A DNA stretch of 24,765 nucleotides from the NCBI GenBank assembly GCA_021202205.1, contig JAJQDJ010000170.1, positions 1 to 24,765 of the forward strand, given 5' to 3'. Positions within the stretch are counted from its first letter, which is position 1; each line of letters opens with the position of its first letter. The notes under the pieces were generated by a model, which was not told the DNA's origin, searched no databases, and saw nothing but the letters and a program-made list of their open reading frames with translations. The DNA comes from Erysipelotrichaceae bacterium (GTDB taxonomy: Bacteria > Bacillota_I > Bacilli_A > Erysipelotrichales > Coprobacillaceae). This document shows positions 5,981 to 8,638 of the stretch, piece by piece. The position numbers and the translations under genes were made by a program.

Positions 5981-5993
5981 TGAGCTCTTTAAA
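5964..5993. terminator. Probable bidirectional terminator between convergent patatin and coaX
   Basis: AAAAAGGAGCTC-tttagt-GAGCTCTTT; A-run on the left, short T-run on the right. Confidence 0.65.
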
Positions 5994-6768
5994 TATACAA
6001 ATATTTTTTTGTTTTTTCATAAATAATTTTTAAGCCTTTGAAAGTTAAATGAACATCATATATATCTATCATATCAGTTTCTTTAGAAAGAATACGTCCT
6101 AAACCACCTGTAGAAATAACTTTCATATTTTCACCATATTCTTCCTTAATTGTTTTAATAATATATTCTGTTTGTCCGATATAACCAAATACGACGCCTG
6201 CCTGCATGCTTTTAATGGTATTTTTAGCAATAATTTTATCAGGCTTTTGGATTTCTATTTCAGGTAATTTGGCCGTTTGACTAGACAAAGCCTGAGCTGA
6301 AATACCAATACCTGGAGCAGTTGCACCGCCAAGAAATTCACCTTTGGCACTCACGACATCATATGTCGTCGCTGTTCCAAAATCAATGACGATACAAGGA
6401 CCACCATATGTATAATAGGCTCCTGCTGCATCAACCAATCTATCTGCCCCTAAAGCAGCTGGATTATCGATACGAATATCAATTCCGGTTTTCACTCCAG
6501 GACCTACAAAGATAGGATTTTTATGGAAATATTTACGAATACAATTGGTAAAAGAATAATTAATTTTTGGAACAACACTGGATATAATCACATCTTCAAT
6601 TTGATTAACATCAATAGATTGGGCATTTAAAAATGACAATAACATAAATCCATATTCATCAGATGTTCTATGAAGACCTGTGGTTAAACGATAAGTACCC
6701 ATGAGTTTATCATTATCATAGACGCCTATTGTAATATTTGTATTACCAATATCAATCACTACTAACAT
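5989..6768 (-). CDS. coaX: Type III pantothenate kinase
   Basis: IDIGNTN, ISSVVP, LGADRL, VIDFGTATT, GGATAPGI, STGG; overlaps the coaBC stop. Confidence 0.96.
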   Translation of the reverse strand: MLVVIDIGNTNITIGVYDNDKLMGTYRLTTGLHRTSDEYGFMLLSFLNAQSIDVNQIEDVIISSVVPKINYSFTNCIRKYFHKNPIFVGPGVKTGIDIRIDNPAALGADRLVDAAGAYYTYGGPCIVIDFGTATTYDVVSAKGEFLGGATAPGIGISAQALSSQTAKLPEIEIQKPDKIIAKNTIKSMQAGVVFGYIGQTEYIIKTIKEEYGENMKVISTGGLGRILSKETDMIDIYDVHLTFKGLKIIYEKTKKYLYI

Positions 6769-7955
6769 TTTTTATCCTCTTCTTTCATTAATCTTTCTAG
6801 TATTTCATAAGCTAAATCTTTTTTAGACATGATATCCAGATTTTCTATACTATCTTTCGTTATCAAAGTCACAACATTGGTGTTGGTTTCAAAACCCGCA
6901 CCTTCAACTTTTAGATTATTCGCAACGATCATATCACAATTTTTCTTTTCTAATTTCGTTTTGGCATTTTCTATTAAGTGATTTGTTTCCATAGCGAAAC
7001 CACATAGTATTTGATGATCTTTTTTGTGTTGACCTAAATAATAAAGAATATCCTTATTTTTTTCTAAATCCAATATCATATGATCATCATTTTTCTTGAT
7101 TTTTTCATTACTTATATTTTTAGGACGATAATCACCAACAGCAGCAGCAAGTATCAAATAATCTTGCTTATCTGAAATAGATGTAATTGTTTCAAACATT
7201 TGTAATGCACTCATAACATTGATTATCTTGATATTAAATGGTTTTTCTATATATGTAGGTCCACTGACTAAAGTGACATCTGCACCTAAATTATAAGCTG
7301 CTTTCGCTACAGCATAACCCATCTTTCCACTGGAATGATTGGTAATATATCTTACGGGATCCATCGCTTCCTGTGTTGGTCCAGCTGACACGAGTACTTT
7401 TTTGCCTAATAATGGTTTTGGAGCCAAAACATATTCTAATGCATCAATCAATTTACTTTCACTTGCCAGTTTACCTTGTCCAACATCACCACAAGCTAGT
7501 AATCCTTCATCTGGTTCAACAAAATAAACTCCAGTATCTTTGAGTATTTGGATATTTCTTTGAGTTATGGGATTTTGATACATATGTATATTCATAGCTG
7601 GTGCGATAATCTTTGGACAAGTGGATGCTAAAAATGCACATGTGAGCATATTATCTGCCATTCCATAAGCAACTTTAGCAATTGTATTGGCACTTGCTGG
7701 GACAATCATAAAAGCCTCAGCTTTAGCTGCAATATCAACGTGGGTAATAGTAGCAGGCTCTTCTTCGTCAAAGGTATCGACATAGACTTTACTTTTGGTT
7801 AGTGATTGGATGCATAGTGGGGTTATAAACTTTGTAGCACTTTCACTCATTAAAACATCAATTGTATAATTCATTTTGACTAAATCACTAATCAGTTGTA
7901 TAGCTTTAAAAGCTGCAATGCTTCCAGTTATTCCAATAATAATTCTTTTTGACAT
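6762..7955 (-). CDS. coaBC: Bifunctional phosphopantothenoylcysteine decarboxylase / phosphopantothenate-cysteine ligase
   Basis: GITGSIAAFKA, PASANTIAK, PAMNIHMY, LACGDVGQGKL, SAGPTQEAMDPVRYITNHSSGKMG, AAAVGDY, GFAMET. Start moved from 7982 to ATG 7955 (AGAAAGGA RBS at 7970-7963). Confidence 0.96.
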   Translation of the reverse strand: MSKRIIIGITGSIAAFKAIQLISDLVKMNYTIDVLMSESATKFITPLCIQSLTKSKVYVDTFDEEEPATITHVDIAAKAEAFMIVPASANTIAKVAYGMADNMLTCAFLASTCPKIIAPAMNIHMYQNPITQRNIQILKDTGVYFVEPDEGLLACGDVGQGKLASESKLIDALEYVLAPKPLLGKKVLVSAGPTQEAMDPVRYITNHSSGKMGYAVAKAAYNLGADVTLVSGPTYIEKPFNIKIINVMSALQMFETITSISDKQDYLILAAAVGDYRPKNISNEKIKKNDDHMILDLEKNKDILYYLGQHKKDHQILCGFAMETNHLIENAKTKLEKKNCDMIVANNLKVEGAGFETNTNVVTLITKDSIENLDIMSKKDLAYEILERLMKEEDKKC

Positions 7956-7970: not shown

Positions 7971-7997
7971 AAAAATAGCCATTTCAAAAGAAATGGC
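7971..7997 (-). terminator. Intrinsic terminator within the coaBC-coaX 5' leader (attenuator)
   Basis: Minus strand GCCAUUUC-UUUU-GAAAUGGC-UAUUUUU ending immediately before the coaBC RBS; no minus-strand gene lies upstream for it to terminate. Confidence 0.85.
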
Positions 7998-8020
7998 ATC
8001 ATAAAAAGTTTTTTTAATTC

Positions 8021-8111
8021 AACTGTCATTTCTTAAGAATATAACGTTTCTTTTTATTTTTTATAAGAATTGTTAATGCTATAAAAGTCACTACAAAAAT
8101 ATTCTTATAAA
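8021..8111 (-). ncRNA. Tandem double-bulged-A hairpins in the coaBC leader; candidate pan-motif-like cis-regulatory RNA
   Basis: Hand-folded. Hairpin 1 (8095-8071) and hairpin 2 (8048-8021) each have a 5-bp helix with a central wobble, flanked by a 5'-strand bulged A (8088; 8040) and a 3'-strand bulged A (8073; 8024). Hairpin 1 is enclosed by an 11-bp stem (8111-8101/8070-8060). Resemblance to the pan RNA motif is from memory; no covariance model was run. Confidence 0.65.
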
Positions 8112-8119
8112 TATCCTTA

Positions 8120-8242: not shown

Positions 8243-8638
8243 ATGATTATAATCAATAATGAAGAGAAACTTAACGGAAAAGTCGAAGATGTATGGAAAC
8301 TTGTCAGTGATTTAAGTGATCAATCTTGGCGTAATCATCTTAAAAGTAGTCAAGTCATTGATAGTAAGCATTATCAAGAAATAAATGATCAAGGATTGAA
8401 AACAACGATTATTTTATTAAATAAGATTGTTTATGATGTTTTTGAGTTTAACTTTACTAATGAAGAATATGATGGTCATTGGCTTGCTAAATTTGAGGTT
8501 ATTGATGATCATACAACACTATTACATATTACTGCTGCTTTTGAAATGAAGAAAAAAACGATGTTTGCAAAAAATAGTTTCAACAAAATTGTTAAACAAT
8601 ATTTTAATGATTTGCAACAAGCTTTAAAGAAAGAATAA
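8243..8638 (+). CDS. SRPBCC / polyketide-cyclase-like (START-fold) protein
   Basis: VEDVWKLVSDLSDQSWR..L, FEF..N..YDGHW...F, C-terminal helix KQYFNDLQQAL; pattern recognised from Firmicute SRPBCC proteins. Confidence 0.7.
   Translation: MIIINNEEKLNGKVEDVWKLVSDLSDQSWRNHLKSSQVIDSKHYQEINDQGLKTTIILLNKIVYDVFEFNFTNEEYDGHWLAKFEVIDDHTTLLHITAAFEMKKKTMFAKNSFNKIVKQYFNDLQQALKKE

Follow-up and report, generated by a model that had tools for sequence, protein, structure and literature searches.

A probable diverged tandem pan-type RNA on a terminator/antiterminator platform upstream of coaBC-coaX in an Erysipelotrichaceae bacterium

The window analysed here, a stretch of 24,765 nucleotides from an Erysipelotrichaceae bacterium, contains a coaBC-coaX leader that is probably a diverged, AT-rich, tandem pan-type RNA joined to a terminator/antiterminator platform, with the factor-bound form corresponding to OFF. 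The leader is a well-supported variant of a known orphan RNA on an instructive platform, and no new kind of system. The pan motif itself (RF01749) is an orphan RNA found in the leaders of vitamin B5 pathway genes and has a wide phylogenetic spread (Weinberg et al., 2010, Genome Biol 11:R31; PMC2864571).

Both genes lie on the minus strand. The first, coaBC (6762-7955), encodes phosphopantothenoylcysteine synthetase/decarboxylase (Pfam DFP and Flavoprotein; TIGR00521, 453.8 bits) and the second, coaX (5989-6768), a type III pantothenate kinase (Pfam Pan_kinase; NCBIfam type III PanK). The coaX start overlaps the coaBC stop, and a terminator scan placed a terminator-like site 3' of coaX at 5987-5970. 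Judged by sequence, the true coaBC start is ATG 7955 (7955-7953), preceded by the ribosome-binding site (RBS) AGAAAGGA (7970-7963); the N-termini of coaBC homologues read MSKK or MSKR. The longest open reading frame call places the start upstream at ATG 7982, within the 3' arm of the terminator described below, but neither this start nor a leader peptide was accepted, as the start is not conserved and the congener L004 carries a stop in the equivalent frame.

The leader is predicted to be transcribed from near 8113 on the minus strand, downstream of a promoter-like site read directly from the sequence (TTGCAT, 8148-8143; 17-nt spacer; TATAAT, 8125-8120) whose hexamers and spacing are identical in the congeners L003 and L004. 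This site is missing from the promoter scan list because its -35 hexamer matches the consensus at only three of six positions. The full leader would be about 158 nt long and its predicted terminated form about 140 nt. Its 5' part (8060-8111, minus strand) comprises, in the minimum free energy (MFE) fold, an 11-bp outer stem, P1 (8111-8101 with 8070-8060), and pan-type hairpin 1 (8095-8071; bulged A 8088 and A 8074/8073), which fold together at -11.0 kcal/mol; in L004 an A-U pair of P1 is replaced by G-C, a compensatory change. Pan-type hairpin 2 follows at 8021-8048 (minus strand), reading AAC-GUUAU-A-UUC-UUAA-GAA-AUGAC-A-GUU with bulged A 8040 and A 8024. The two hairpins share one geometry: a base of 2-3 bp, a bulged A on the 3' side, a 5-bp helix, a bulged A on the 5' side, a 3-bp top stem and a variable loop. 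As 50 nt separate hairpin 2 from the RBS, it cannot act by ribosome blocking in the window.

An earlier note on this DNA had also considered that UAAGAAUAU (8107-8099) might pair with AUAUUCUUA (8042-8034), the 5' arm of hairpin 2. The two strands are indeed perfectly complementary over 9 bp, but a role for them as a switch is not supported: the 5' strand is instead taken up by P1, for which L004 provides covariation, folding puts the combined alternative state at a cost of about 10 kcal/mol, and other genera show no evident counterpart of the pairing.

The main result on the hairpins comes from comparison across the family. The coaBC upstream regions of 29 relatives were collected and a covariance model (A1, R1) was built from 11 sequences. 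With model R1, tandem hairpins were found in 68 of the 80 other family genomes and nine of 75 from a sister family, usually once per genome; a strict pattern scan recovered the element in Massilimicrobiota, Coprobacillus, Longibaculum, Kandleria, Eggerthia, Thomasclavelia and Stoquefichus. When 63 hits were aligned to the model, paired cells made up 96.7%, compared with 28-57% in slid controls, and compensatory double changes occur at all 19 pairs. These comprise the nine pairs of hairpin 1 (94.5% of cells paired across 62 sequences) and the ten of hairpin 2 (98.5% paired), every one of them with double changes. Hairpin 2 has both of its bulged A residues, and the C-G pair adjoining the 3' bulge, in every one of 58 copies, while in hairpin 1 the 5'-side A is present in 52 of 53 and the other A in 40-49 of 51-52. 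Nearly all of the 58 copies have the hairpins in tandem with about 30 nt between them, and a few sister-family copies have hairpin 2 only. The many G.U pairs, which occur on the sense strand only, identify the structure as RNA and, together with the helix-wide covariation, rule out a DNA operator.

The resemblance to the pan motif is one of architecture. In both, each hairpin stem is broken by two invariant bulged A residues with a 5-bp helix between them and a U-Y-C/G-R-A top stem, the order of elements along the 5' strand (3 bp, 5 bp, A, 3 bp) and its mirror image along the 3' strand agree with the Rfam consensus in helix length and bulge side, an A/U-rich linker of about 30 nt joins the tandem hairpins, and a Shine-Dalgarno sequence comes right after the second hairpin (here in the panT copies). 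The consensus of the family element is AAC-GUYRY-A-UUC-loop-GAA-RYRAC-A-GU-GGAGG, and that of RF01749 is CuG-CCUgG-A-UCc-loop-gGA-CcGGG-A-CaG-AaGG. The 5-bp helices are therefore unlike, GUYRY/RYRAC in the family and CCUGG/CCGGG in RF01749, and the present element further differs in the long outer stem that carries hairpin 1, in the terminator platform of the coaBC copy and in the genes served, which are panT, coaBC and coaX rather than the panB, panC and aspartate decarboxylase operons of the pan motif: the same pathway, but another branch. Rfam searches of the window and of the relatives' leaders, at the gathering threshold (36.2 bits for RF01749) and at E <= 10, returned no meaningful family. 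RF01749 matched no leader in the window's own genome, in five relatives or in a sample of 150 genomes, nor the window's leader at E <= 10; weak hits in G000:C90 and G016:C152 fall elsewhere, the latter inside a membrane-protein open reading frame. Given the different helix sequences and genes and the lack of an Rfam match, the element is filed as a diverged pan variant that falls short of Rfam's own definition of a member.

Within the family, the element is used in two gene contexts. Most other genera of the family and order have a gene for an ECF transporter S component of about 200 aa (PF12822) ahead of coaBC and then coaX, with the tandem hairpins directly upstream of it; from this context, the S component is taken as a PanT-like vitamin B5 importer. 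The arrangement holds almost without exception across the 68 family genomes. In these panT leaders hairpin 2 touches the Shine-Dalgarno sequence, and a terminator is absent from nearly all of them. Among the 29 relatives, the leader before coaBC is kept only in the two congeners with a complete locus, L003 and L004. The genus of the window has two copies, a terminator-type leader before coaBC-coaX and a Shine-Dalgarno-type leader before panT. The latter lies in the window's genome at G000:C13:10311-10424, before a stand-alone panT (L064-L067 for own genome and congeners), and has one base between hairpin 2 and the Shine-Dalgarno sequence AGGAGG, which is GGAGG in most relatives. Hairpin 1 of the coaBC copy has the mainstream sequence of the panT-coaBC-coaX operons of other genera, so the coaBC leader looks like the ancestral operon leader after loss of panT, with the terminator apparently standing where the Shine-Dalgarno sequence once was. 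G221, a species of another genus, shows the same split, with pan-type hairpins and a 9-bp terminator before coaBC-coaX (L068:501-700, G221:C100). Terminator-type copies were found in the family-wide search in genus g1 and G221 only.

The stand-alone panT of the window's genome (G000:C13:10421-11043; L064:611-1233) is broken in frame, while its congeners' genes are intact at 205-207 aa. One base is short in an A-run at codons 8-9, which leads to TGA, and a stop and local frame slip occur near residues 150-165. Neither panB nor panC was found in this genome, which is 96% complete; the organism should therefore need an importer, which makes homopolymer assembly errors likelier than a pseudogene.

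Immediately upstream of the coaBC RBS, a consensus scan places an intrinsic terminator at 7971-7998 (minus strand), with an 8-bp stem, four pairs of which are G-C, formed by GCCAUUUC (7997-7990) and GAAAUGGC (7985-7978), a UUUU loop and a UAUUUUU tail (7977-7971); the same scan found four terminator-like sites in the region where 0.9 are expected. The sequence from 7997 to 7971 is as the earlier note described it, with the RBS directly after. The promoter scan found no promoter-like site between the hairpins and the coaBC start. As the terminator abuts the RBS and no promoter intervenes, coaBC-coaX can be expressed only by readthrough, in agreement with the same note. A plus-strand reading, as the terminator of a convergent gene, was rejected for want of an upstream plus-strand gene and because the T-run lies far off.

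The proposed antiterminator strand, AAGAAAUGACA (8024-8034, minus strand), pairs with UGCCAUUUCUU (7998-7988), so that the 5' arm of the terminator doubles as the antiterminator partner. As claimed earlier, ten of 11 positions pair, the exception being a single A.C mismatch, and the duplex is worth -8.2 kcal/mol; the strand does share its bases with hairpin 2, taking in the 3' arm with the bulged A and two bases of the loop. Hairpin 2 alone folds at -2.9, the antiterminator helix with its loop at -7.1 and the terminator at -11.8 kcal/mol. Which of the two folds wins depends on the length of the transcript. The MFE fold of transcripts ending at 7988 or 7986, before the terminator 3' arm, contains the antiterminator (-19.4 versus -14.7 kcal/mol), whereas that of the complete leader contains hairpin 2 and the terminator (-31.7 kcal/mol, against -25.4 with the antiterminator enforced). 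At equilibrium, the probability of the antiterminator in the full leader is approximately zero, and the readthrough model consequently rests on co-transcriptional kinetics. The switch of the MFE fold from hairpin 2 to the antiterminator once the terminator 5' arm has been transcribed is seen in the window, L003 and L004. Hairpin 2 of the window's genus is the weakest among the 58 copies (family mean, -6.3 kcal/mol), which fits what a competing antiterminator would require.

In the full-length MFE fold, a lower helix (8008-8002 with 7971-7965, minus strand) extends the terminator stem and covers the RBS bases AGAAAGG. If readthrough transcripts refold, this helix, which is absent from the L003 fold, would impose an additional block at translation.

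The preferred mechanism follows this folding order. A factor reporting vitamin B5/CoA sufficiency would bind the hairpins and lock the weak hairpin 2, leaving the terminator 5' arm free, so that the terminator would form and transcription would stop at about 7971 (OFF). Without the factor, the emerging 5' arm would capture the 3' half of hairpin 2 to give the antiterminator, which is predicted to be more stable than hairpin 2, and polymerase would read into coaBC-coaX (ON). In the Shine-Dalgarno-type copies, that is, the genome's own panT and those of most relatives, the same binding event would repress translation. Hairpin 2 is therefore proposed as both the factor-binding element and the anti-antiterminator. 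In support of the latter role, which the earlier note put forward, the helix covaries across the family and is mutually exclusive with the antiterminator; the note's prediction that a stabilised hairpin 2 means OFF would fit both the truncated-transcript folds and the Shine-Dalgarno-adjacent copies elsewhere.

Besides the pan motif, two known kinds of system come closest. The targets of ANTAR proteins, with their dual hairpins, and attenuation by PyrR or TRAP are cases in which an oligomeric protein on small leader hairpins decides between terminator and antiterminator, and the logic proposed here is alike in that a factor on leader hairpins would select one or the other. In ANTAR targets, however, binding leads to readthrough and the recognised feature is a hexaloop, whereas here binding is predicted to lead to termination and the hairpins carry bulged A residues. 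In the guanidine-II (mini-ykkC) riboswitch, two tiny tandem hairpins form the whole sensor, and Shine-Dalgarno or terminator platforms are used. The present element likewise has two very small tandem hairpins and either platform, but the guanidine-II loops are conserved (ACGR), while here the loops vary and the bulged A residues and flanking pairs are invariant. Our estimate gives a protein, preferably a dimeric one, close to an even chance of being the effector and a pathway metabolite a smaller though substantial one, with the remainder going to another effector or to none. The pseudo-symmetry and small size of the hairpins, their variable loops, the tandem layout and the lack of anti-Shine-Dalgarno pairing all favour a protein.

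It is possible, though we consider it doubtful, that the leader is instead a true riboswitch, in which a CoA-pathway metabolite would bind to the bulged-A hairpins without the help of a protein and, by stabilising hairpin 2, select the terminator; pantothenate, 4'-phosphopantothenate, 4'-phosphopantetheine and CoA would be tentative ligand candidates. One sensor with two expression platforms (a terminator here, Shine-Dalgarno sequences elsewhere) is in keeping with such a device, as are a hairpin 2 that is weak and needs stabilising and open reading frame maps in which no conserved regulator gene was seen beside the loci. The history of the tandem mini-ykkC hairpins, which were first taken as protein sites and later proved to bind guanidine, counts in the same direction. 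So do the breadth of the pan motif's distribution (PMC2864571) and the fact that a CoA riboswitch has been expected while none is known (PMC9971707). Against direct metabolite binding stand the great simplicity, the pseudo-symmetry and the variable loops of the hairpins; in addition, the Shine-Dalgarno sequence is unpaired in the copies that have one, where the hairpin merely abuts it in a manner suited to steric block by a protein, and no binding has been reported since 2010 in the searchable literature. The broader claim, that the pan family including the panT/coaBC/coaX variant is the missing vitamin B5/CoA riboswitch class, with hairpins that sense a CoA-pathway metabolite, is slightly more doubtful still.

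The link between hairpin 2 and the terminator could also be challenged. It is unlikely, but worth weighing, that the terminator is fixed and leaky and matches hairpin 2 by chance, in which case the hairpins would regulate otherwise or be a relic of the panT leader that outlived the loss of panT from this operon, and control might run through mRNA decay, Rho or translation by way of the extended RBS-covering stem. The complementarity is not significant when the strand is left free (p 0.13-0.18): if any strand in the 115 nt upstream is allowed, an equally good duplex arises at a rate of 17.6% among the genome's own terminators and 12.6% among shuffled leaders. It is notable only because the match falls on the conserved hairpin, and terminator 5' arms pairing this well with the 3' half of hairpin 2 number only four others among 397 terminator-like sites of the genome, or about 1%. 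The leaky-terminator reading is also helped by an equilibrium fold that always has the terminator, by the lower stem over the RBS in the full-length MFE fold and by L068, the one independent terminator-type copy, which lacks a clean antiterminator: its alternative helix takes the 3' arm of hairpin 2 and stops three bases before the terminator, with no overlap. Conservation of the antiterminator in relatives, on which the earlier note had staked its model, thus held in L003 and L004 but not in L068, and a mutually exclusive antiterminator overlapping both the sensor helix and the terminator 5' arm was found in the window and those two congeners. In L003 and L004 the terminator arms are conserved while loop and spacer drift, which speaks against chance; the antiterminator shows no compensatory change, the congeners being too alike for a covariation test, with leaders 87% identical. 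The hairpins of the window retain every family-invariant base and are hence not decaying, which argues against a relic, and a terminator abutting the RBS leaves readthrough as the sole route to coaBC-coaX. It is very improbable that the chief role of the terminated leader of about 140 nt is that of a free-standing small RNA acting in trans, since, for all its promoter, structured body and strong terminator, nearly all copies in relatives lack a terminator and run into the panT Shine-Dalgarno sequence, and no second target was seen.

A pan-type RNA of this kind precedes vitamin B5 uptake (panT) and the first steps of CoA synthesis (coaX, coaBC), beyond B5 synthesis, and is used with both Shine-Dalgarno-adjacent and terminator platforms. 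With one RNA over uptake and CoA steps, the likely signal is a downstream metabolite common to both, or a protein reporting such a metabolite. To our knowledge, CoA exerts no feedback inhibition on type III pantothenate kinase, so control at the gene level would fill a regulatory gap in these gut bacteria. We also know of no riboswitch or other RNA-level sensor of coenzyme A that has been established. Beyond Weinberg et al. (2010), the searchable literature offered no account of the pan motif's function or of an RNA element upstream of panT or coaBC. The terminator platform makes the proposed logic explicit, with hairpin 2 stabilised as the OFF state, and the weak, short hairpin 2 combined with a clean terminator offers a convenient assay substrate for finding the effector. 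If the metabolite-sensor reading were true, the terminator-type copy would be a natural construct for single-round transcription assays.

Two further observations concern the neighbouring genes. There are apparently two PanT subtypes (L069, L071-L075, L081-L083 and L064-L067), and some genomes have both. The operon subtype, from panT-coaBC-coaX, has the N-terminus MNKQKTKNLAF..., and the stand-alone subtype begins MKSKKTQYM... or MNKTKT... and has a different hairpin 1 in its leader (AAGAG-A-UC...GA-CUYUU-A). In the window, the divergent neighbour of the leader (8243-8638, plus strand) encodes 131 aa with a sub-threshold SRPBCC/Polyketide_cyc2 match (E 8e-4), and open reading frames of 131 and 132 aa are present in the upstream regions of the congeners L003 and L004.
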